NCBI GenBank assembly: GCA_964608145.1 | Contig: CAZSMD010000002.1 | Span: 1-39,935 of the forward strand | Direction: 5' to 3' | Source of the DNA: an uncultured Candidatus Saccharibacteria bacterium | Lineage (GTDB): Bacteria > Patescibacteriota > Minisyncoccia > Phycocordibacterales > EsbW-18 | Length of the DNA stretch: 39,935 bases | Shown: positions 2,187 to 37,960 of the stretch, piece after piece | How the letters are laid out: each line of letters opens with the position of its first letter | How positions within the stretch are numbered: the first letter of the stretch is position 1 | Made by a program: the position numbers and the translations under genes | Notes under the pieces: generated by a model | Told to the model about the DNA's origin: nothing | The model's input: only the letters and a program-made list of their open reading frames with translations | Database searches by the model: none

Positions 2187-3461
2187 TTATAGCGTTTTTC
2201 GGCGGTACATGAGGTGGTAGAGCCACTCCCAGGCAACCCGGAATTTTAAGTCCCATCGCACAACCGAAAACACGTAGATAATATGCGCAAGGTGCCACGC
2301 AAGCAAACCGGAGAATTTGTATCCGAAAATCTCGGCAATACCATAATGCTTTCCTATCGGCACAAGGAACCCGCGCGCTTGTACTCTGAAGGAAGTTGGT
2401 TTTTTGCCCTGCAGCATCTTCAAAATGTTTTTTGCCGCATGACGACCCTGGCGAACGGCGAACTGCGCCTGCATACCGTATGAACCGCCCCCCTCTTTCG
2501 GAACATGCGCCGTGTCACCGACAACAAAAATGTGTTCCTTCCCTTCAAGATTCAGTGTCGGGGTCACAAAAATCCTTCCGCGGTCATCATGCGACACCGG
2601 CGGTTGTGAAGTCGTCTGCACCGGTGACCCCGAAACACCGCCGGTCCAAACTATTGTCCGGGACGGTATATATCCTTTGCTGGTTTTTATGCCCCTGTCC
2701 GTGATTTCGAGGATATCCGTGCTGGCGGACACCGCAACACACGGAAGCTGCGCAAGCCGCTCACTCGCTTTTGCACCAAGCCATGCATTTCCCCCAAGTG
2801 TTATTTCTTCCCCTTTGTTGATGAGAATAACACGCGCAAAATCACAGAGGTCGGGATACTTTTTCGCAAGCTCTTTTGAAAACAAGTCCGAGAGTTCTCC
2901 AACAAGCTCGACACCGGTCACACCGGCACCCACAGAGATAAAGGTGAGCTGCTCCTCTTTCTCCGCGCGGGTGTTTGCTTTTTTTGCCTTCTGAAACTGC
3001 TCAAGAATATGCGCCTTCAGTTTTTCGGCATCAGCGAGCGAACGCAGCTGAAACAAATGCTCTGCCCCGCCCGGAATGTTCGGCAGCGCCGGCGACGATC
3101 CCGTCGCCATAACGAGCCAGTCGAACGAAAACGTCAGACGTTCTCCTTTTGCGTCAACGGTTATGTACTTTTTGTCCGCATCAACGGCGACGACGCGTCC
3201 GCACAGAAGCTCTGTTTGCGGACATGCAATGTATTTCGAAAGCGGCCACGAAATGACGCTCCCCGGAATCGCGCATGTTGCAACTTCATGAATCAACGGA
3301 ATGTGTACGAACAATGCATTGTCGGAAATCAGCAAAAGTTCATATGAGCCGTCGCGACACGCCGAAAGAGTGCGGTAGGCACTGACCCCGGCGAATCCCC
3401 CGCCGACGATAATGATTCTCTGTGGATAACTCTCCTCTCTACCTTTTGCCATAGGTATCAT
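2187..3461 (-). CDS. ndh: type II NADH:quinone oxidoreductase (NDH-2) / FAD-dependent pyridine nucleotide-disulfide oxidoreductase
   Basis: 424 aa. There is an N-terminal IIIVGGGFAGV FAD fold and a second dinucleotide fold (SVGAGVTGVE). The FVVGD motif and an amphipathic, hydrophobic C-terminus are typical of NDH-2. Confidence 0.85.
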   Translation of the reverse strand: MIPMAKGREESYPQRIIIVGGGFAGVSAYRTLSACRDGSYELLLISDNALFVHIPLIHEVATCAIPGSVISWPLSKYIACPQTELLCGRVVAVDADKKYITVDAKGERLTFSFDWLVMATGSSPALPNIPGGAEHLFQLRSLADAEKLKAHILEQFQKAKKANTRAEKEEQLTFISVGAGVTGVELVGELSDLFSKELAKKYPDLCDFARVILINKGEEITLGGNAWLGAKASERLAQLPCVAVSASTDILEITDRGIKTSKGYIPSRTIVWTGGVSGSPVQTTSQPPVSHDDRGRIFVTPTLNLEGKEHIFVVGDTAHVPKEGGGSYGMQAQFAVRQGRHAAKNILKMLQGKKPTSFRVQARGFLVPIGKHYGIAEIFGYKFSGLLAWHLAHIIYVFSVVRWDLKFRVAWEWLYHLMYRRKTL

Positions 3462-5698: not shown

Positions 5699-6964
5699 TT
5701 ATCTGCCGAGAATTGAATCAAGCGTATTTCGTTTAATAATCATCCACGCGGGAATATAACCGGCGATAAGGGTCGAAACCACGAGGATGATGAGTTTGGT
5801 GATTGTGCTCCCGAGCGGAGCTACAAGAATACCGTCGGAGAACGGAAAATCAATCGGGTGCGAATTAAAGAAGGGCACCATGAGGCCGTAGATAATAACA
5901 AGCGCAAAACCGGAACCGACGAGCGCATAGAGAAGCGACTGAAAGACGTAGGAAAGCTCGATGGCACCTGCGCGCACGCCGATACCTTTAAGAATACCTA
6001 TGTACTTTCTCCGCGTAATGGCATTGACGAAAATAACGATAAAGATGGTGATCGAAGACACCATGAGCCCGACGGAGCTGATGCCGTTTCCGAGCATCGC
6101 AAACGTCGCAATCATGTCAATGAGAAACTGGGGCAATCCTTCGCGCGAAAGCCGCACGACTGCAGTATCGCCGATGCCGCTGTCTAGAAGCGACTGCTTG
6201 ACCGCCGGCGCCTGCGCAATGTCATCAACTCGGATAGCCACCTCATTCACGTTCAAGTCGGTCCTGCCGGCAAGACGGATAAATTCCTTCTCGGGAAGAA
6301 AAGCGCGCATCGAGACCTGGTCTACTTTCGTTTTGACGATTCCCTTGACGATGTACTCCTTCGTCGCCTCGCCGACGGTTACCCGGATGCGTGATCCGAT
6401 TTGTACATTCGAGAGTGTGGGAAAACCGTATTCGTCCCCCTGCCCCAACGGCGAATACTGCTCGAGGTTCATCGAGCCGAGCATGATGTAATTTGAATCG
6501 TCAGAGGTGAGATATTCCCCCTCGATTACCTTATCTGAAAGATTGGTCACCGCGTCTTCGATTTCCGGGTTTATTCCGGCCAATGTCGTCCCCACGGTGT
6601 CCCTGAGAGCCTGCGGGTCACGTCGCTCGCGGTAATTTGCCTCGAGCCGCACGCTTTGCGTAAAACGCGCACTGTAGCCCTTGATGCCGGGAAGCGTGTC
6701 GAGTGCGGCAATAATGCTTCTGCTTTGATCAATGCTGTCTTTACCGACTTTTGTGGAAAGAAAAATATCGCCCGTGTACTGGTCGCTGTAGGCTTTCACC
6801 GAACCTTCGATAAGTCCCACCAAAATACCGGAAACCGCCACAAGGTTGAGGAACGTGAGCATCATGATAAAAATGATGAGGCCCGTCGTCCACACGCTTG
6901 CGTGGCGTATTTGCCGGACTCCAAGCAGGAGGCCGACGCGTAATGTTTCCTTCCACATCTTCAT
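5699..6964 (-). CDS. ABC transporter permease, FtsX/MacB-like with a large extracytoplasmic domain
   Basis: 421 aa. One N-terminal TM helix is followed by a ~240-aa soluble domain and three C-terminal TM helices. The RRKYIGILKGIG motif is typical of the FtsX family. Confidence 0.85.
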   Translation of the reverse strand: MKMWKETLRVGLLLGVRQIRHASVWTTGLIIFIMMLTFLNLVAVSGILVGLIEGSVKAYSDQYTGDIFLSTKVGKDSIDQSRSIIAALDTLPGIKGYSARFTQSVRLEANYRERRDPQALRDTVGTTLAGINPEIEDAVTNLSDKVIEGEYLTSDDSNYIMLGSMNLEQYSPLGQGDEYGFPTLSNVQIGSRIRVTVGEATKEYIVKGIVKTKVDQVSMRAFLPEKEFIRLAGRTDLNVNEVAIRVDDIAQAPAVKQSLLDSGIGDTAVVRLSREGLPQFLIDMIATFAMLGNGISSVGLMVSSITIFIVIFVNAITRRKYIGILKGIGVRAGAIELSYVFQSLLYALVGSGFALVIIYGLMVPFFNSHPIDFPFSDGILVAPLGSTITKLIILVVSTLIAGYIPAWMIIKRNTLDSILGR

Positions 6965-9649: not shown

Positions 9650-11288
9650 CTTCAACAGACGCCGCCGGCAGTTCCACAGAGAACACACTTCCCTTCCCCG
9701 GGCCTTCTGATTCTGCCCAAATACGCCCTTTGTGCGCATCGACGATTTTTTTCGCGATATAGAGTCCGTATCCTGTACTGTGGATGTTCACCTTTCGTGA
9801 ATCTTTGCCGTGACCGCCTTCCTTAAAGAGCACCTCTTTGTCTTCGTCGTTTATGCCGATACCGGTGTCTTTGATTTGTAACGTATACACACCGGAATCA
9901 TTCTTTGACAAGGACACATCAACGGAGCCTTTTGGCGTGTAATTGAGAGCATTGTTGATAAGGTTGCGGAGCACGTGGGTTTCAAGCTGCACTTTGTCCG
10001 CAGTAATCATGTATGCGCCGTCCGCGATATGTGTCGCAATTGAAAGACCTTTTGCCTCTGCATCTTTTCTCGCCTCTTCGACAAGACGTATGACGGTTTC
10101 CTTGAGGTCAAATGGAGCGGGGTTAAGCACCAGCTCGTGTCCTGATTCAAGAATTGTCGTGATGGAATCAATAAGCGTGTGCGTATCGGCAAAAGACTGC
10201 TTGAGAAACGGTTTTGCGTCGTCCGGAACAACACCCAAATCACCTTCGATGAGCGCGTTGAACATGTCCTTGTTTTTCCCGAGAACCGCCTTAACATCAT
10301 GGCTCAAGATACTGTTGACGTTCTTCAGCCGTCGGGCAAGATCCTCGATTTCCTCTCGCTGGCGAACCTCTTTTTTGACGCTACGGACGAGGAGAATACC
10401 GCCGATGACTGAGATGAAGAACGTGGCGCCGTTAAGAACGCGGTTTCCAGACGATGCGATGAAGAAAAATTGTGACCCGATAAGAATGGAGAGGGAGACC
10501 GAGAGCGCCTGCGTTGCGATAAGGCGGATATCGAATGCTTTGTAACGGATAATCAAGTACGAGAGAAAGGCAATAAAAATAGGCATTCCAAACAGCCCCC
10601 ACTGCGGAATACGCCAGTCATTAGTAATCGTACCAATGATGTTTCCGAAAGAGAGCGTCAGGAGAAAAAGCAGGATACCCACGGTCACAAGAATTATTTG
10701 ATGACGAAGCGTAGGATTATTTTTTACCTTTCGAAAACGCTCCATGGTAAATATCACTATCCAAAGGGTGTAGATGACTTCAATAAGGTAGCCAAATTGG
10801 GTTAATGGTCCCTCAATCGCTTCACGGTCGCAACTAATTAGGTTGTAACCGAGCAGCGCAAGATCTGTATGTGCAAGCAAGAGTGTCGGAATTAGTAAAA
10901 GTCCGATGACAATCTTGTTTTGAAGCGTTGTGTCCTCTCCGGTGATAAAAACCTGTATAAAATACAAACCCGCCGCATAAATAACGGGCTCAATGATGAC
11001 CATCAACGACCAGAAAAAAATTGTCAGGTGGGGTTTGTCGGTCGCCCACAGAATGAGATCAAAAAAGACCCACGCGGAAAAAAGGCTCGTAATAAAGAAA
11101 AGTATTCTTGTAGGCAGTAATCGCGGGTTTTTATAAAGCACAAAAAAGCCGATTGTAAGGGAGAGGATGAGCGGTACGATGTGGGAGTAGTAGATAAAAG
11201 GATCGAAGACATTCTCGGAAACAACCAGAAAATCCGTGGTATCCCACGCGCAGGCTGCCATGAGGTTTTGAACCACACTACTGTACAT
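9630..11288 (-). CDS. polytopic membrane sensor histidine kinase
   Basis: 552 aa. About 9 N-terminal TM helices are followed by an H-box (ILSHDVKA), an N-box (NLINNALNYT) and G-boxes (DTGIGI, GYGLYIAKKIV). Confidence 0.85.
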   Translation of the reverse strand: MYSSVVQNLMAACAWDTTDFLVVSENVFDPFIYYSHIVPLILSLTIGFFVLYKNPRLLPTRILFFITSLFSAWVFFDLILWATDKPHLTIFFWSLMVIIEPVIYAAGLYFIQVFITGEDTTLQNKIVIGLLLIPTLLLAHTDLALLGYNLISCDREAIEGPLTQFGYLIEVIYTLWIVIFTMERFRKVKNNPTLRHQIILVTVGILLFLLTLSFGNIIGTITNDWRIPQWGLFGMPIFIAFLSYLIIRYKAFDIRLIATQALSVSLSILIGSQFFFIASSGNRVLNGATFFISVIGGILLVRSVKKEVRQREEIEDLARRLKNVNSILSHDVKAVLGKNKDMFNALIEGDLGVVPDDAKPFLKQSFADTHTLIDSITTILESGHELVLNPAPFDLKETVIRLVEEARKDAEAKGLSIATHIADGAYMITADKVQLETHVLRNLINNALNYTPKGSVDVSLSKNDSGVYTLQIKDTGIGINDEDKEVLFKEGGHGKDSRKVNIHSTGYGLYIAKKIVDAHKGRIWAESEGPGKGSVFSVELPAASVEEKKPAA

Positions 11289-12531: not shown

Positions 12532-12595
12532 GATTGTTCCGATTGGCTATCAACATTAAAAGTATAACACGCATTCGGACCTTCGGACGATTTTG

Positions 12596-12666
12596 TGCGG
12601 GTACCGGGAATCGAACCCGGGTCTCAACCTTGGGAAGGTCGCATTCTGCCACTAAACCATACCCGC
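12596..12666 (-). tRNA. tRNA-Gly (anticodon CCC)
   Basis: The minus strand reads GCGGGTATGGTTTAGTGGCAGAATGCGACCTTCCCAAGGTTGAGACCCGGGTTCGATTCCCGGTACCCGCA. It folds into a cloverleaf with a 7-bp acceptor stem, anticodon loop TTCCCAA and T-loop TTCGATT. CCA is not encoded. Confidence 0.9.
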
Positions 12667-12771
12667 AAGAGAGGAACAGACTGGGCGAACGTGTTCGTTC
12701 GGACTTGTTCCGAACGCCGCGGCTATATGCCTACATATACCCGCAAGAGAAGAGCAGACCGGACGTGGTTG

Positions 12772-17335: not shown

Positions 17336-17361
17336 AAAAACCCCGTTCAACCGGGGTTTTT
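17336..17361. terminator. bidirectional rho-independent terminator (rnpB and nrdB)
   Basis: AAAAA-CCCCG-TTCAAC-CGGGG-TTTTT. Confidence 0.6.
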
Positions 17362-29176: not shown

Positions 29177-29503
29177 ATGCACGCGTCGCACGAAGAACAC
29201 TTTGCGCATCTTGCCGCAGAGTTCATCAACAAAGAATCAAACCGGCAGTCACTGGTGACGGTAACGAACGCGCGGCTCTCTCGCGACGGTAAGCGCTGTG
29301 ACATTTTGCTGACAGTACTCCCCGAGGACAAAGAACACGACGCGATTGATTTTCTTACGCGTAAGGTTAGCGAATTTCGTTCATTCGTCAAAAGCCAGTC
29401 ACGCGGACGAATTGTTCCCATGTTCAGTTTTGCAATTGATACAGGAGAAAAAAACCGCCAAATTCTTGACACATTGTCAGAGGGCGATAAATCCTTAGAA
29501 TAA
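29177..29503 (+). CDS. rbfA: ribosome-binding factor A (RbfA)-like
   Basis: 108 aa from the ATG at 29177. It has the canonical position after infB and a KH-like pattern (VTVTNARLSRDGKRCDILLTV ... RGRIVPMFSFAIDTGEKN). Confidence 0.7.
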   Translation: MHASHEEHFAHLAAEFINKESNRQSLVTVTNARLSRDGKRCDILLTVLPEDKEHDAIDFLTRKVSEFRSFVKSQSRGRIVPMFSFAIDTGEKNRQILDTLSEGDKSLE

Positions 29504-29510
29504 GAGAGAC

Positions 29511-29582
29511 GGCACGATGGCGAAGTGGTAACGCGACGGTCTGCAAAACCGTTATGCACGGGTTCGATTCCCGTTCGTGCCT
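29511..29582 (+). tRNA. tRNA-Cys (anticodon GCA)
   Basis: GGCACGA ... ACGGT CTGCAAA ACCGT ... CACGGGTTCGATTCCCGT TCGTGCC T. Discriminator U, as expected for Cys. CCA is not encoded. Confidence 0.9.
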
Positions 29583-29593
29583 CCTGCTTTTAC

Positions 29594-29679
29594 GTCGGGG
29601 TGGCGAAATTGGTAGACGCCGCAGACTTAAGATCTGCTGTCTGTAAAAAGACGTGAGGGTTCGAGTCCCTCCCCCGGCA
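29594..29679 (+). tRNA. tRNA-Leu (anticodon TAA), long variable arm
   Basis: GTCGGGG TG GCGAAATTGGTAGACGC C GCAGA CTTAAGA TCTGC TGTCTGTAAAAAGACGT GAGGG TTCGAGT CCCTC CCCCGGC A. CCA is not encoded. Confidence 0.9.
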
Positions 29680-29780
29680 CAAGCGAAGCTTGTCTCCTTG
29701 AGGGACGAGAAGACCTTTTGAGAGAGTTTGTGAGCATTGCGAAACAAACTATCCAAAAGGTGTACTGCTCCTGTAAGGAG

Positions 29781-29801
29781 CGAGTCCCTCCCCCGGCACA
29801 A
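29781..29801 (+). repeat. distal direct copy of the tRNA-Leu 3' end (21 nt)
   Basis: CGAGTCCCTCCCCCGGCACAA is identical at 29662-29682 (tRNA-Leu T-loop through the discriminator plus CAA) and at 29781-29801. Confidence 0.9.
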
Positions 29802-29805
29802 AAAT

Positions 29806-29831
29806 CCCTCCCGAAATCGGGAGGGTGTTTT
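29806..29831. terminator. rho-independent terminator after the tRNA-Leu region, convergent with the protease gene
   Basis: CCCTCCCG-AAAT-CGGGAGGG-TGTTTT. Confidence 0.65.
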
Positions 29832-29844
29832 GCAACAAGAAACA

Positions 29845-30990
29845 TTACTCCGAGACACCGCGTTCGTGGAAAATACTCTCGAAAAGTGCTGCGGACGAGA
29901 TACCGGAGGCGTCGTCTCCGGCGGCGAGCTCGCGGTACAGTCCGTCGCCGCGTTTCGTGAGAACGGACGTGCGGGGATCACCGACCAGCATGCGAACCGG
30001 GCGTTTCTCTCCGCCGCGCCACGCAAGCTTTGTATCGCGGATGAAGAAAAAGGCGTCGTCTCCTACGAAAACTGCTGCATCGTCTGAAGCTTCGAGCGGA
30101 CTCGTGCCCAGCACGGTGACGACGGTCTCCGTGAACTTATCTCCGCCGTGCAAGAGTGGAGCAGATTCGACGGTGATTTCGTAGAACGGAAGCGCGGAAT
30201 ACGTCGTCTCCCCGACTGCATCGGCAACGGTCTCTTCCCAGTAGAGGCCCGAATCCTGGTTCCACTTCGTCTCGGAAACAGCAACAACGCGCCCGACCAG
30301 GATTTCATCGGCGATTTGAATTCGCTCGAGGAGAGAGAACTCCTGGTACGAGAAATCAACGTGTACGTTGCTTTCCGAAGGTTTCTCCGCAGACGAGACG
30401 CCCGGACTCGAGAGCAGATTGTCGTACTGTGCGTTCACCGCGTCTTCGTCGTCATTTTCGAGCGAGCGCTTCCAGGTCTTTCCGTACTTGTACCCGGAGC
30501 ACATGGTAGGACGGTTTGATTCGGAAACCGACGAAGAGCAGTTCTCGCTTTGCGTGTGCCCGATGCCGAGCGCGTGTCCGAATTCGTGTGCGGTCTCAGA
30601 ACGTGCGTCAAGCCTGCTGCTTGAGGGCGAGCTCGACCCCGTGTACCACGACTCCCCGTTGTCGAACCGCATGCTCATCTTGGTAATCCAGTTGTTGTAA
30701 TACCAGACCGTCGTCGTTGCGAACGTGCCGTACTTCCCGTCGATGTCCGTCATGAATACGTCGTTGATGCTCCCGGAATCATAGCGCCAGTCGAACGGCG
30801 ACGCCGACTCCCACCGGCCGGCGCCGTAGGAAGCCGCACTTCGCCAGGACGAGGTCATGGTGTGCGCGTCGTACGTCGCACTCGGCGTCGGCCACGCGCT
30901 CCCGTAGAGCACGTAGGCACTCGCCTCAGCGGTGACGAAAAACGCAACGACGAGAATGATGCTGCCGACGAGAGAAAGCTTGGTCTTCAT
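29845..30990 (-). CDS. secreted metzincin (matrixin/M10-like) zinc metalloprotease with a C-terminal domain of unknown function
   Basis: Signal or anchor MKTKLSLVGSIILVVAFFVTAEASA, zinc site HEFGHALGIGH (HExxHxxGxxH) and a downstream Met-turn candidate (RPTMCSG). I chose the ATG at 30990 because it follows AGGAGA by 5 nt. The track's extension to 31113 is unsupported. Confidence 0.75.
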   Translation of the reverse strand: MKTKLSLVGSIILVVAFFVTAEASAYVLYGSAWPTPSATYDAHTMTSSWRSAASYGAGRWESASPFDWRYDSGSINDVFMTDIDGKYGTFATTTVWYYNNWITKMSMRFDNGESWYTGSSSPSSSRLDARSETAHEFGHALGIGHTQSENCSSSVSESNRPTMCSGYKYGKTWKRSLENDDEDAVNAQYDNLLSSPGVSSAEKPSESNVHVDFSYQEFSLLERIQIADEILVGRVVAVSETKWNQDSGLYWEETVADAVGETTYSALPFYEITVESAPLLHGGDKFTETVVTVLGTSPLEASDDAAVFVGDDAFFFIRDTKLAWRGGEKRPVRMLVGDPRTSVLTKRGDGLYRELAAGDDASGISSAALFESIFHERGVSE

Positions 30991-36769: not shown

Positions 36770-37960
36770 CTAGTCCGCAGTCGTCTTGAAGTGGGTCGCG
36801 CTTGATGTCGCCGTGTTCCCCTCCGCATCTTCTGCAACGATGATGAAGTAGTAGTCCGTGCTGGTCGCCAAACCCTCGAGGAGCACGCTGTGCTCGCTGT
36901 CGAATGAGGCTACGGACTCCTTCATGTCGGGGTCAAGGTCAATGTTGCTGTCGTTGTCATACCAGACCGTCCCCTTTGCATCCTCGTCCGTCTCCCATGC
37001 AACTTCCGCCGATGATGTGCTGATGTCGTTCACATCAATGTCTTCGAAGTCCGGGGCCGAGGTATCAGACGGCTCATCGCCGGTTGTGAAGTGTTTGACG
37101 CTTGATGTCGCAGTGTTCCCCGCCTTGTCTTTTGCAACAATGACGAAGAAATATTCCGTGTCTTGCTCGAGACCGTCAAGAGAAATTTCGTGTGATGTAC
37201 GGAACGTCGATACGGACTCCTTCATGTCGGGGTCAAGGTCAATGTTGCTGTCATCGTCGTACCAGACAATGCCTGATGCTTTTTCGTTTGTTTCCCATGC
37301 AATTTTTGCTCCGTCATCTGAAACATCGTCCACGTCAATTTCTTTGAACGTGGGCGCCGTTGTGTCAGCATCATCGTCATCGTCATCATCGTCGTCCCAC
37401 CAACCATTAAATTTCTTCGCGATACCGCCGGGCACGTTTGAACATCCGGAGATGTCAATCATGTGTCCGCCGATTTTCTTCTTCTGGCCGGGTGCGATGA
37501 GTTTACCCCACGCTTTGCATGTGAAGTCGTCGTCATCGAGAAGATCGTTCAGTTTTTTGAGTGTCTTCGGTCCCACAAATCCGACCTGTTCAAGGCCGTA
37601 CTTCTTTTGAAACTTCAGCACCGCCCTTTCCGTCAGCGGGCCGTAGTAGCCGGTGATAAGACCTTCCGGATAAATCTCCGGGTCCGCTGCAAGAATTTCC
37701 TGGAGCGCTTTGACGTCGTCGCTCGACATGCCAAGACGAAGCTCCCGTGCAAGCGCGACCGTTTCCCTGAGTTCTTTCTGCAGGTTTGACTGCTTATTCA
37801 TAAGCGCCGCAATTTCGTCCTGGAGATCTTTAATCTGCTGCAGCAAGTTCTCAAGCTTGCTAACGTCGCTTGATGTCGAAGTCTCCGCCCGCGCAAATAC
37901 CGGAACAAACGAAACGGCTAAGAGAAAGCCGAATCCAAGTGCTGCTAACTTGTTTTTCAT
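36770..37960 (-). CDS. secreted protein: coiled coil, peptidoglycan-binding domain (PG_binding_1), poly-Asp linker and two FN3-like repeats
   Basis: Signal peptide MKNKLAALGFGFLLAVSFVPVFARA. PG-binding motif DVKALQEILAADPEIYPEGLITGYYGPLTERAVLKFQKKYGL..GFVGPKT. A run of nine Asp residues follows, then two ~100-aa repeats ending in GNTATSS..HF.T. Confidence 0.75.
   Translation of the reverse strand: MKNKLAALGFGFLLAVSFVPVFARAETSTSSDVSKLENLLQQIKDLQDEIAALMNKQSNLQKELRETVALARELRLGMSSDDVKALQEILAADPEIYPEGLITGYYGPLTERAVLKFQKKYGLEQVGFVGPKTLKKLNDLLDDDDFTCKAWGKLIAPGQKKKIGGHMIDISGCSNVPGGIAKKFNGWWDDDDDDDDDADTTAPTFKEIDVDDVSDDGAKIAWETNEKASGIVWYDDDSNIDLDPDMKESVSTFRTSHEISLDGLEQDTEYFFVIVAKDKAGNTATSSVKHFTTGDEPSDTSAPDFEDIDVNDISTSSAEVAWETDEDAKGTVWYDNDSNIDLDPDMKESVASFDSEHSVLLEGLATSTDYYFIIVAEDAEGNTATSSATHFKTTAD
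36776..37375. repeat. tandem duplication, 2 x 300 bp, inside the CDS (the two FN3-like modules)
   Basis: A 42-nt perfect match (TACGGACTCCTTCATGTCGGGGTCAAGGTCAATGTTGCTGTC) occurs at 36911-36952 and 37211-37252. Further matches (for example 36801 versus 37101) fall at exactly the same 300-bp period. Confidence 0.85.

Follow-up and report, generated by a model that had tools for sequence, protein, structure and literature searches.

The tRNA-Leu(UAA) locus and its repeated 3' end

In the window (the whole stretch of 39,935 nucleotides that was analysed), a tRNA-Cys gene and an intact tRNA-Leu(UAA) gene are followed by a partial second copy of the tRNA-Leu. The 21-nucleotide sequence CGAGTCCCTCCCCCGGCACAA, which runs from C56 in the T-loop to the discriminator A73 (29679) plus CAA, occupies positions 29662-29682 and is found again, without a single mismatch, at 29781-29801. 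We call the direct copy of the tRNA 3' part X, its reverse complement X', and the hairpins of the element P0, P2 and P3. The locus is composed as follows:

29474-29501, + strand: promoter-like site TTGTCA-16-TAGAAT upstream of tRNA-Cys (consensus match only)
29511-29584, + strand: tRNA-Cys(GCA), 3' end not duplicated
29594-29680, + strand: tRNA-Leu(UAA), intact gene (end at 29679/80), discriminator A at 29679, CCA not encoded
29662-29682, + strand: proximal X, tRNA C56 to A73 plus CAA
29679-29693, + strand: P0, trailer hairpin ACAAGC-GAA-GCTTGT, beginning at the discriminator
29700-29712, + strand: X' (GAGGGAC, 29700-29706, reverse complement of tRNA G59-C65), then GAGAAG
29713-29761, + strand: P2 of the second core type, a long nested hairpin with ACC/GGU closing
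29759-29781, + strand: second-core signature GGUGUACUG, then P3 (CUCC-UGUAA-GGAG), adjoining X
29781-29801, + strand: distal X, exact copy of the tRNA 3' part, which could pair with X' and close a three-way junction
29806-29831, + strand: intrinsic terminator (hairpin 29806-29825, then a T run), 3' of the distal copy

Within P2, the outer arms ACCTTTTG (29713-29720) and CAAAAGGT (29754-29761) pair with each other, and the inner arms AGTTTGT (29725-29731) and ACAAACT (29744-29750) enclose a loop of 12 nucleotides; the full P3 hairpin, GCTCC-TGTAA-GGAGC, occupies 29767-29781. The GAGAAG that follows X' is a degenerate reverse complement of the start of the T-loop. The perfect duplication and its limits, GAGGGAC, the nested hairpin with its 12-nucleotide loop, the GCTCC-TGTAA-GGAGC hairpin, and a terminator placed after the distal copy rather than after the tRNA had all been described in an initial annotation of this DNA, and all were recovered; the trailer hairpin is also real, but lies at 29679-29693 and not, as then given, at 29678-29692.

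Judging from its sequence, the promoter-like site is likely to be the start of a transcript that contains tRNA-Cys, tRNA-Leu and the element. Since the element lies between the tRNA and the terminator, the tRNA-Cys/tRNA-Leu precursor probably carries it as a structured 3' trailer. The fold of the tRNA-to-terminator stretch is very stable (z = -7.3), and in its minimum-free-energy structure the distal copy pairs with the 5' acceptor and 5' T-stem strands, the proximal copy being paired with X'.

For exact 21-mers repeated within 400 nucleotides, the number expected in this window is 3.6e-6. Exact direct repeats of at least 18 nucleotides within 400 nucleotides are found at four places, three of which are the 3' ends of tRNA-Trp, tRNA-Tyr and tRNA-Leu, the fourth being a 300-nucleotide coding repeat (about 36900-37235). 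It had been correctly stated that tRNA-Leu is the third instance among five tRNAs, tRNA-Cys and tRNA-Gly being without a duplication. Both junctions of the tRNA-Leu insert are crossed by contigs from eight sequencing runs in four studies (for example, 29511-29691 and 29772-30100), which refutes the assembly artefact initially envisaged, and no joint skipping the insert is reported among the contigs of those runs. Neither an excised form nor a fresh insertion between near-identical strains was seen in sequencing-run contigs. Runs labeled as RNA-Seq consist of contigs whose depth is a flat mean per contig, which explains why RNase P RNA has the same depth as its neighbors; such depths carry no signal of expression.

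Sister elements, and filled and empty sites in relatives

The two other duplications of tRNA 3' ends in the window belong to elements of the same layout:

21953-22121, - strand: tRNA-Trp sister element (tRNA 22103-22174; proximal X 22102-22121; canonical core 21972-22035, 78.5 bits; distal X 21953-21972)
22542-22775, + strand: tRNA-Tyr sister element (tRNA 22475-22559; proximal X 22542-22562; distal X 22711-22731, then a terminator)

In the tRNA-Tyr element, P0 is terminator-like, X' (GCCGAGAGGATTCGAAC) lies at about 22615-22632 and a P2 of canonical type at about 22630-22666; the core match of 13.7 bits covers this P2 part only. The window thus holds three copies in 40 kb, with inserts of 98-148 bp and no ORF.

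Comparison with related genomes revealed the same tRNA genes with or without the insert. The tRNA-Tyr site is filled in the window and in locus L088, and empty in L081 and L087, where a terminator directly follows the tRNA. The tRNA-Trp site is filled in the window and in L081, and empty in L088, where the ATG of the next gene overlaps the last base of the tRNA; L087 has a different tRNA-Trp sequence at this site, likewise without duplication. The region 3' of the window's tRNA-Leu is variable among relatives. L081 contains three strong or moderate core matches in 20 kb (tRNA-Trp, tRNA-Leu(UAG) and tRNA-Lys), and many tRNAs of the same genome, as well as orthologous tRNAs in close relatives, are devoid of the element. 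These filled and empty sites, together with the position of the terminator, support the initial proposal that the insert landed between the tRNA and its original terminator, duplicating the 3' end. A separate scan with IF-2 yielded no close relatives, because the nearest named genome, Ca. Zambryskibacteria, was only 46% identical; it served as a control tRNA set.

In its left part, the tRNA-Leu(UAA) insert shares homology with elements found behind tRNA-Leu(UAG), which have the canonical core: X' plus GAGAAG (29700-29712) corresponds to GAGAGGAC-GAGAAA in the tRNA-Leu(UAG) elements of L081, L084 and L088, and P0 in the relatives' tRNA-Leu(UAG) elements reads CAAAC-GAA-GTTTG, a compensatory difference from the window's P0. 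A comparison addressing a possible remoulding of the window's tRNA-Leu(UAA) from tRNA-Leu(UAG) gave identities of 0.79 versus 0.71-0.76.

A family of folded elements

Beyond what had been noted before, the tRNA-Leu insert belongs to a widespread family with conserved, covarying hairpins. Its members, non-coding and about 90-180 nucleotides long, follow the order tRNA, P0, X', P2, P3, X, with P0 beginning immediately behind the tRNA, and an intact gene is kept beside the element; in the loci that we read, the tRNA genes do not encode CCA. There are at least two core types. The canonical one, GCCGGAG...GGGGUCGCG..UUUUCAGCAGAAAA..CGUGAC, has at least 120 metagenome matches, and among the matches listed it is found behind tRNAs of about 28 anticodons and behind tmRNA. 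The second, with the GGUGUACUG/UGUAA signature, is carried by the tRNA-Leu copy, and its stems are fully complementary in 13 of 13 instances comprising eight different stems. Locus L002 may represent a third type.

The elements were seen in ultra-small CPR bacteria of the Paceibacteria type, at tRNA and tmRNA 3' ends and sometimes elsewhere. Across 121 tRNAs from 90 sources (89 loci plus the window), duplications of 17 nucleotides or more at the 3' end were limited to Parcubacteria-type loci. Other targets include D-loops, the end of the rplL coding sequence, partial tRNA copies upstream of intact genes, and 5S rRNA gene copies, which the core interrupts or abuts in antisense orientation.

Read on the tRNA-sense strand, the element folds into a Y-shaped three-way junction closed by X' and X. 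Pairing is maintained in 98.6% of pair cells, with changes on both sides in 10 pairs (160 cells). The covariation score is 0.383; shuffles give 0.122, and slid controls do not exceed 0.07. G.U pairs are restricted to the tRNA-sense strand. Conserved loop nucleotides (a GGA/GA internal loop and an AGCA loop), together with the covarying hairpins, are suggestive of tertiary contacts or of a partner that binds. Between the window and L081, the orthologous tRNA-Trp element shows 92% identity, compared with 38-44% at fourfold sites, and identity falls sharply after the distal X; conservation of orthologous copies extends to P0, outside the core.

Target-matching flanks and the two-nucleotide rule

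The GAGGGAC that had been noted as complementary to the distal copy turns out to be a defining part of the element: it is the reverse complement of the target and reaches 2 nucleotides past the duplicated part. In 39 of the 41 scorable cases, X' covers exactly 2 nucleotides more of the target than X does, on the upstream side. Nor is this an ordinary target duplication of fixed length, since X starts in one of two discrete registers, at C56 of the T-loop (long register) or at N72 of the acceptor (short register), and the duplicated target measures 5-29 nucleotides (only about 5 in short-register copies). The junction dinucleotides vary (UU, CG, TG, CT, GT, CA, AC); in the short register the dinucleotide varies yet matches in 17 of 18 cases. 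The rule is obeyed at the end of the rplL coding sequence as well, and where the insertion lies in a partial tRNA copy, 2 nucleotides of the target are missing. Some copies start with GUGCG, which is no more than the complement of a tRNA 3' end in ...CGCAC and covaries with the tRNA. In other genomes the distal copy has often decayed outside the part that pairs with X', the acceptor part being affected in about half of the long-register copies.

Searches for known families and protein partners

A covariance-model search of the window and eight canonical loci against Rfam 15, at gathering and permissive thresholds, matched tRNA and RNase P only, and no family to the insert; there was no relevant sub-threshold match in these sequences either, self-cleaving ribozymes and introns included. 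No family of Rfam 15 corresponds to it, and a full-text literature search found no report describing it. A published survey of rRNA insertions in CPR bacteria lists none in 5S rRNA, and does not treat tRNAs. The core pattern had no match in viral contigs.

Clustering of the ORFs within 2.5 kb of 115 cores did not point to any transposase, integrase or reverse transcriptase associated with the element, nor was an HUH enzyme, TnpB or IS110-type gene found among them. Only syntenic housekeeping genes recurred, plus a sporadic large serine recombinase, present within 2.5 kb of 5-6 of about 115 loci, outside the element and in inconsistent arrangements. In the window itself, no integrase was identified among nine ORFs scanned against Pfam, and none lies in or beside the three inserts.

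Several further candidates were rejected: a retron ncRNA, in view of the missing reverse transcriptase; group IIC introns; permuted or two-piece tmRNA, Y-RNA-like RNA and T-box; and a fixed-length duplication of the CRISPR or casposon type.

Origin of the repeat

The question arises as to what kind of event left such a repeat. We consider it fairly probable that the tRNA-Leu repeat is one copy of a family of small, strongly folded, non-coding insertion elements with target-templated flanks. Such an element would be, or would once have been, mobile; at insertion, each target would serve as the template for X' and X, and selection or repeated homing would later retain the copies. The geometry can be read as a bottom strand ending at -2, joined via the core to a top strand starting at 0, as if a break with a 2-nucleotide 3' overhang had been capped by the core and then copied.

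A more specific version, which we put forward tentatively and hold to be possible but rather unlikely, is that the elements form a new, protein-less mobile unit, whose conserved two-hairpin core would cap or bridge a break staggered by 2 nucleotides, the flanks being newly synthesised at each target by copy-back or template switching. The breaks would fall in loops or at ends of highly structured, highly expressed genes (tRNA T-loop, D-loop and acceptor end, tmRNA, 5S rRNA). Each element would hold a 'guide' to its insertion site that it has written itself, and would always regenerate an intact host gene.

A second scenario, possible although we hold it to be rather unlikely, is that the element is a cis-acting RNA module beneficial to the host, either a structured 3' trailer or a small RNA released from tRNA precursors, serving in termination, in the processing of 3' ends, in stabilising the precursor, or as a decoy. 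Retention of X' and X would then reflect a need to pair with the tRNA 3' end or with each other. The whole insert is under strong purifying selection: its identity is 92%, compared with about 40% at neutral sites, and drops sharply at the distal X. The high conservation of orthologous copies, P0 included, is no less compatible with a host function than with a selfish element. The covarying hairpins with their conserved loops, the folding of the tRNA-sense strand, the placement of the window's element inside the tRNA transcription unit and its very stable fold all point the same way. However, the core is also found antisense in or beside 5S rRNA gene copies, in partial tRNA copies and downstream of a protein gene; within one genome many tRNAs do without it, as do orthologous tRNAs in close relatives; and the distal copy decays outside its paired part in other genomes. 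Moreover, P0 in other genomes is frequently a good terminator, placed between the tRNA and the core, so that in those genomes the tRNA transcript may not include X' and the core. Such a module might also represent an insertion element that was domesticated at a later stage.

The repeat might instead be the scar of a classical integrase-mediated element, that is, attL and attR around the remnant of an internally deleted island or prophage. The T-loop and the extreme 3' end, where the repeats begin, reportedly are the crossover sublocations of tRNA-targeting integrases (a description said to go back to Williams in 2002), and the region downstream of tRNA-Leu is variable among relatives. The locus has one complete and one partial tRNA copy, as is left by the integration of tRNA-targeting elements (PMC9897764). 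We nevertheless regard this origin as improbable: the inserts are 98-148 bp long and ORF-less, covarying cores are common to distant genomes and different tRNAs, neither an integrase gene at the window's three inserts nor a viral match of the core was found, and both the target-specific inverted X' and the 2-nucleotide rule are foreign to att scars.

Very improbable, too, is an intervening sequence in the T-loop: the genuine 3' end of the tRNA would be the distal copy, the proximal one being removed together with the insert. In the minimum-free-energy fold, the distal copy does pair with the 5' acceptor and T-stem strands and X' with the proximal copy, and the complementarity of X' extends over the junction of the uninterrupted target, like that of an internal guide sequence. 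Yet the proximal gene is already a complete, high-scoring tRNA, the distal acceptor part is decayed in about half of the long-register copies elsewhere, in the short register only some 5 nucleotides are duplicated, no intron or ribozyme family matches, and bacteria are not known to have a tRNA splicing endonuclease. Finally, short repeats may in principle lead assemblers astray, but chance or misassembly can practically be dismissed, given the expectation and the junction coverage reported above and the recurrence of the architecture in independent assemblies.

Comparison with known systems

Like integrative elements of tRNA and tmRNA genes, the elements described here are flanked by a direct repeat of the tRNA or tmRNA 3' part starting in a loop or at the extreme 3' end, preserve an intact gene with a displaced partial copy downstream, and vary in presence among relatives. 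Unlike them, they contain neither integrase nor kilobase-sized cargo (about 100 nucleotides versus kilobases), have a conserved folded core and a target-specific inverted X', and also occupy D-loops, 5S rRNA gene copies and the end of a protein gene.

With MITEs, Correia, RUP and REP/BIME sequences and the PATEs of IS200/IS605, they share being short, non-coding, rich in hairpins, present in several copies per genome and sporadic at orthologous sites. In contrast to MITEs, however, their inverted repeat is not a fixed terminal repeat conserved with a parent IS, X' and X being host sequence that differs from target to target; the target duplication is 5-29 nucleotides long in two registers instead of short and fixed; and structure covariation and conservation of orthologous copies are strong. 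An IS200/IS605-type PATE, which would insert 3' of a fixed target of 4-5 nucleotides without duplicating it and would have conserved LE/RE hairpins, is also at odds with the variable junction dinucleotides and the duplicated target.

Concerning mobile introns (guides P1/P10 in group I, EBS/IBS in group II) and guide-bearing recombination RNAs, the likeness is that X', an internal segment, spans the junction, being the reverse complement of 2 target nucleotides on one side of the insertion point and 7-20 on the other. The elements differ in that they are too small for a catalytic core and match neither Intron_gpI nor the group II models of Rfam, have no associated protein gene, and leave the host gene uninterrupted, the target being duplicated instead.

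Lastly, the terminal hairpins of parvovirus ITRs, T- or Y-shaped, and integron attC sites, which recombine as folded single strands, also have a stem made of two mutually reverse-complementary sequences with two small internal hairpins. In our elements, too, only one strand folds, because the G.T wobbles lie on one strand, and the forward-inverted-forward order recalls hairpin-primed copying. Here, however, the stem is host-derived tRNA sequence, different at each site, and the elements are chromosomal and not at replicon ends; neither a Rep/HUH or IntI gene nor the attC R/L boxes (R''/R', RYYYAAC / GTTRRRY) were seen.

Implications

CPR bacteria (Patescibacteria) have tiny genomes with few recognised mobile elements. 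A conserved, structured family that follows about half of the tRNA genes seen in this lineage (in the window, three of five) would rank among the major non-coding features of such genomes. On the practical side, it creates tRNA-like fragments and long palindromes, a potential source of error for tRNA annotation, island prediction and assembly. If the elements are mobile, target-templated flanks with a strict 2-nucleotide offset would point to a mechanism of insertion unlike that of IS elements, MITEs, integrases or introns. If they are host RNAs, they would constitute a new tRNA-linked RNA, possibly tied to 3'-end maturation.

The duplicated 3' end of tRNA-Leu(UAA)

As the initial annotation had it, the 3' end of tRNA-Leu(UAA) is repeated downstream without a mismatch, CGAGTCCCTCCCCCGGCACAA (21 nt) standing at 29662-29682 and again at 29781-29801. 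The proximal copy runs from T-loop C56 to discriminator A73 plus CAA. The parts described for the insert are all present, although the trailer hairpin ACAAGC-GAA-GCTTGT lies at 29679-29693 and not where it had been placed. The terminator ascribed to the region behind the distal copy was found at 29806-29825, followed by a T run.

Features of the window
29474-29501: promoter-like site, preceding tRNA-Cys
29594-29679/80: tRNA-Leu(UAA), intact (ARAGORN and Rfam)
29713-29761: long hairpin of the tRNA-Leu element (second core type), ACC/GGU closure
12659-12687 and 12737-12765, minus strand: copies of the repeat that spans the tRNA-Gly start and leader

In this window, exact 21-mer repeats within 400 nt are expected by chance 3.6e-6 times. 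Exact direct repeats of at least 18 nt within that spacing occur at four places: a coding repeat, and the 3' end of each of tRNA-Trp, tRNA-Tyr and tRNA-Leu. Contigs from eight sequencing runs of four studies cross both junctions and none skips the insert; the duplication is therefore not an assembly artefact. Strain variants were seen at 29738 (T>C in three runs, in the loop of the long hairpin) and at 17359, just behind the RNase P RNA gene (a 9-nt insertion, TTGTGCGCC, in one run). A tandem repeat with a 300-nt period (80-85% identity, with a 42-nt exact stretch) occupies 36787-37305, within a minus-strand ORF at 36770-37960.

Presence and absence among relatives

Genes for a short IF-2, RbfA, ClpB and a ribonucleotide reductase lie in the window, as does a class A RNase P RNA with a low score. 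The nearest named genomes belong to CPR bacteria of the Parcubacteria/Paceibacteria type: the IF-2 shares 46% identity with that of Ca. Zambryskibacteria, and its RbfA has relatives that carry the names Parcubacteria, Kaiserbacteria and Paceibacterota. Four syntenic relatives were retrieved via RbfA (70-80% identity). Duplications at the same tRNA are present in some genomes and absent from others, which supports the insertion proposed at the outset.

Inserts behind tRNA genes in the window and in relatives (L081, L084, L087 and L088 are compared loci)
tRNA-Trp: insert in the window and L081; none in L088 and L087
tRNA-Tyr: insert in the window and L088; none in L081 and L087 (tRNA, then terminator directly)
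tRNA-Leu(UAA): insert in the window, degenerate relative in L081; none in L084, L087 and L088
tRNA-Leu(UAG): insert in L081, L084 and L088; no insert-free case seen

The insert-free site of L087 carries a different tRNA-Trp sequence. In L088, the last base of tRNA-Trp (2979-3050) is overlapped by the ATG of the next gene, DUF192 (GCCCGCA/TGAAAAAG), an overlap suggesting that the 5' end of this mRNA is made through tRNA 3' processing. Every relative is rearranged downstream of RbfA/tRNA-Cys, with an extra tRNA-Lys and tRNA-Leu(UAG), and with inversions in L088. Between tRNA-Cys and tRNA-Leu(UAA), L084 (7020-7619) and L087 (10474-11061) hold an ORF (about 200 aa, weak HNH hits) whose call overlaps the tRNA-Leu gene. 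The tRNA-Cys of these two loci (6857-6929 and 10310-10382) is on the minus strand according to ARAGORN and on the plus strand by synteny; its sequence seems to allow a tRNA fold on both strands.

Among 121 control tRNAs from 90 sources (the window and 89 loci, mostly of unrelated bacteria), 3'-end duplications of at least 17 nt were confined to Parcubacteria-type loci, including L001 (Zambryskibacteria) and L002 (GW2011_GWB1_40_14).

The inserts are strongly conserved. Between the window and L081, fourfold sites are 44% (ClpB) and 38% (IF-2) identical and an intergenic spacer 64%, against 92% for the 129-nt tRNA-Trp insert, whose P3 differences are compensatory. In a sliding comparison of this locus, identity is 40/40 in the tRNA, 35-40/40 in the element and about 21-28/40 right behind the distal copy. 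For the tRNA-Leu(UAG) inserts, identity across three genomes is 78-84%. Such values would reflect either selection acting on resident copies or homing, in which the site is replaced again and again.

Architecture of the elements

Read side by side, the inserts share one order: tRNA, hairpin P0, X', a short purine-rich joint, hairpin P2, GG, hairpin P3 and X. P0 starts at the discriminator or right after it, and is often a good intrinsic terminator inside a longer perfect palindrome that reaches into the 3' end of the tRNA. X' corresponds, in reverse complement, to part of its own tRNA (T-loop, T-stem or acceptor 3' strand), and thus varies with tRNA identity; X repeats the 3' part of the tRNA in direct orientation. 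The sequence of the canonical core is G-N-C GGA (stem, loop GACG) GA G-N'-C GG GGUCGCGnn-nnUUUUC-AGCA-GAAAAnn-A-nnCGUGAC. A pattern derived from P3 matched at least 120 stretches in metagenome contigs and none in viral contigs; of the matches listed, 77 follow a same-strand tRNA at a distance of 42-322 nt (about 28 anticodons) and five stand behind tmRNA. Rfam 15 holds no family matching the element, even at permissive thresholds. Two-element tandem arrays behind one gene were seen in L157, L144, L099, L200, L108 and L160, at times combining the canonical and the second core type, each element ending with its own target copy.

Pairs were counted in an alignment of 53 distinct gap-free cores. 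Standard pairs fill 98.6% of pair cells (84.7% in shuffles), changes on both sides occur in ten pairs and in 160 cells (44 cells in shuffles), and the covariation score is 0.383, compared with 0.122 for shuffles and at most 0.07 with slid partners. This signal comes from P2a, P2b and the free P3 positions; columns fixed by the search pattern contribute none. Columns 33-57 have G.U in 32 of the 53 cores, and G.U pairs are never replaced by A.C, which indicates that the tRNA-sense strand is the one that folds, as RNA or single-stranded DNA. With the covariance model built from this alignment (R1), the window's tRNA-Trp element reaches 78.5 bits and its tRNA-Tyr element 13.7 bits (P2 part only); copies in L001, L081, L084 and L088 are detected as well. 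No copies were found in the Saccharibacteria, Peribacteria, Falkowbacteria and Nealsonbacteria loci searched, and a match in a Jorgensenbacteria locus was insignificant and partial (15.3 bits, E 0.69).

At the window's tRNA-Leu, this model of the canonical core gave no match. The left part of that element (P0 CAAGC-GAA-GCUUG, X' GAGGGAC, joint GAGAAG) is homologous to that of the relatives' tRNA-Leu(UAG) elements (CAAAC-GAA-GUUUG, GAGAGGAC, GAGAAA), with compensatory changes in the P0 stem. Its long hairpin is followed by GGUGUACUG and a small hairpin, CUCC-UGUAA-GGAG, adjoining X. The motif GGURUACNG-N4-YGUAR-N4 has 13 distinct instances among the compared loci; the N4 segments, whose complementarity the search did not demand, are fully complementary in all 13 and form eight different stems. 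Seven instances have an annotated same-strand tRNA at most 600 nt upstream, most with the X'...X frame, and the other six have none within 600 nt on the stretch examined. Segment 29712-29780 recurs in the same metagenomes between ...CATCGACGTGAA-GTAA-TTCACGTCGATG and TCGACGTGAA..., in the layout target, loop, reverse complement, core, target copy, the copy beginning 2 nt in; the tRNA-Leu core is therefore present at another locus or in another genome. In these metagenome contigs, the 69-nt segment is preceded by CATCGACGTGAAGTAATTCACGTCGATG and followed by TCGACGTGAAATAATG. Cores thus seem to be interchangeable modules set in a shared frame, and L002 may contain a third type.

The P0 of the window's tRNA-Leu copy is no terminator and the terminator comes after X, so that the element probably belongs to the tRNA-Cys/tRNA-Leu precursor, from which a structured RNA of about 125-150 nt could be released. 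In the predicted minimum-free-energy fold, X' pairs with the proximal copy and the tRNA body with the distal one, which shows that the RNA has two alternative pairings open to it.

Flank registers and targets

At tRNA 3' ends, the flanks fall into two discrete registers. In the long one, the direct copy X begins at C56, and the reverse-complementary X' covers the target from U54 on; in the short one, the starting points are N72 for X and N70 for X'. For 39 of 41 scorable cases, X' exceeds X by exactly 2 target nt. These nucleotides vary in the short register (CG, TG, CT, GT, CA, AC), yet they match for 17 of 18 copies, with a chance expectation of 1 in 16. A non-RNA target, the end of the rplL coding sequence (last codons) in L158, follows the rule as well. 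Among long-register copies, about half have a decayed acceptor part of the distal X and a retained X'-pairing part; an identity as perfect as the 21 nt of the window is therefore no general requirement.

In some other copies, the P0/X' hairpin is replaced by a separate one, H0 (conserved loop GAAUACUUGGA). These copies lie inside partial tRNA-Ser or tRNA-Asn copies upstream of the intact gene or, at tRNA-Pro, in antisense beside the intact gene, and their junctions lack 2 target nt: GT (tRNA-Ser D-loop), CT (tRNA-Asn) and AA (tRNA-Pro T-loop). Cores in antisense also interrupt or adjoin 5S rRNA gene copies (L156, L159, L118, L188); L159 has an intact copy ahead of the interrupted partial one, and L156 a second copy behind the interrupted one. 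An intact host gene copy is adjacent at the examined tRNA and tmRNA sites; some 5S rRNA sites lie on stretches too short for this comparison.

tRNA-Gly (12595-12666, minus strand) has its first 8 nt, together with 21 nt of leader, duplicated 78 nt upstream (86% identity), with a hairpin, GTTCGGA-ACAAG-TCCGAAC, between the copies. This recalls the 5'-side elements at tRNA-Asn and tRNA-Ser in other genomes; no core is recognisable in it (R1 6.6 bits, E 9).

Origin of the family

How could such blocks have arisen? Among known kinds, the closest is the signature of att repeats that marks integrative elements at tRNA and tmRNA genes. The sublocations within tRNAs that Williams reportedly described for integrative elements in 2002 match those found here. 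Where such elements integrate, one copy of the gene stays complete and another is partial (PMC9897764). However, their defining integrase and cargo are both absent here. Large serine recombinases, which cut with a 2-nt stagger, lie near a few copies, in inconsistent arrangements. In L207 (1746-3386 / 3372-3446) and L130 (3-1175 / 1166-1238) the recombinase, on the strand opposite tRNA-Asn, ends within the 3' end of this tRNA, and a core element is on the tRNA's 5' side; related recombinases are near H0-type elements in L165, L149 and L169.

The same cores recur at many unrelated targets, in both orientations to the host gene and with flanks that would have to be rewritten per target; we lean towards insertion elements, rather than host-evolved trailers or integrase scars. 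The flanks read as the target bottom strand ending at -2, then the core, then the top strand from 0. A break with a 2-nt 3' overhang, capped by the core and then copied, would produce this geometry; an upstream P0 turn combined with the capped flank would give the forward-inverted-forward arrangement and keep the gene intact. The folded form would be a Y-shaped three-way junction, reminiscent of parvoviral terminal hairpins and folded attC sites.

MITEs share the small size and multi-copy nature of these elements, but lack a target-templated inverted repeat and a variable, register-bound duplication. Intron guide sequences share complementarity across the junction; in contrast to introns, the present family has no catalytic core and leaves the gene uninterrupted. 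A published survey of CPR rRNA insertions, which counted only those of at least 100 bp and did not treat tRNAs, lists none in 5S rRNA. A full-text literature search returned no description of the family, an absence that is no proof of novelty, and we think it rather unlikely that the mechanism is categorically new. What the tRNA-Leu repeat opens onto is a widespread, conserved family of structured elements, for which neither Rfam 15 nor the searchable literature yielded an entry.
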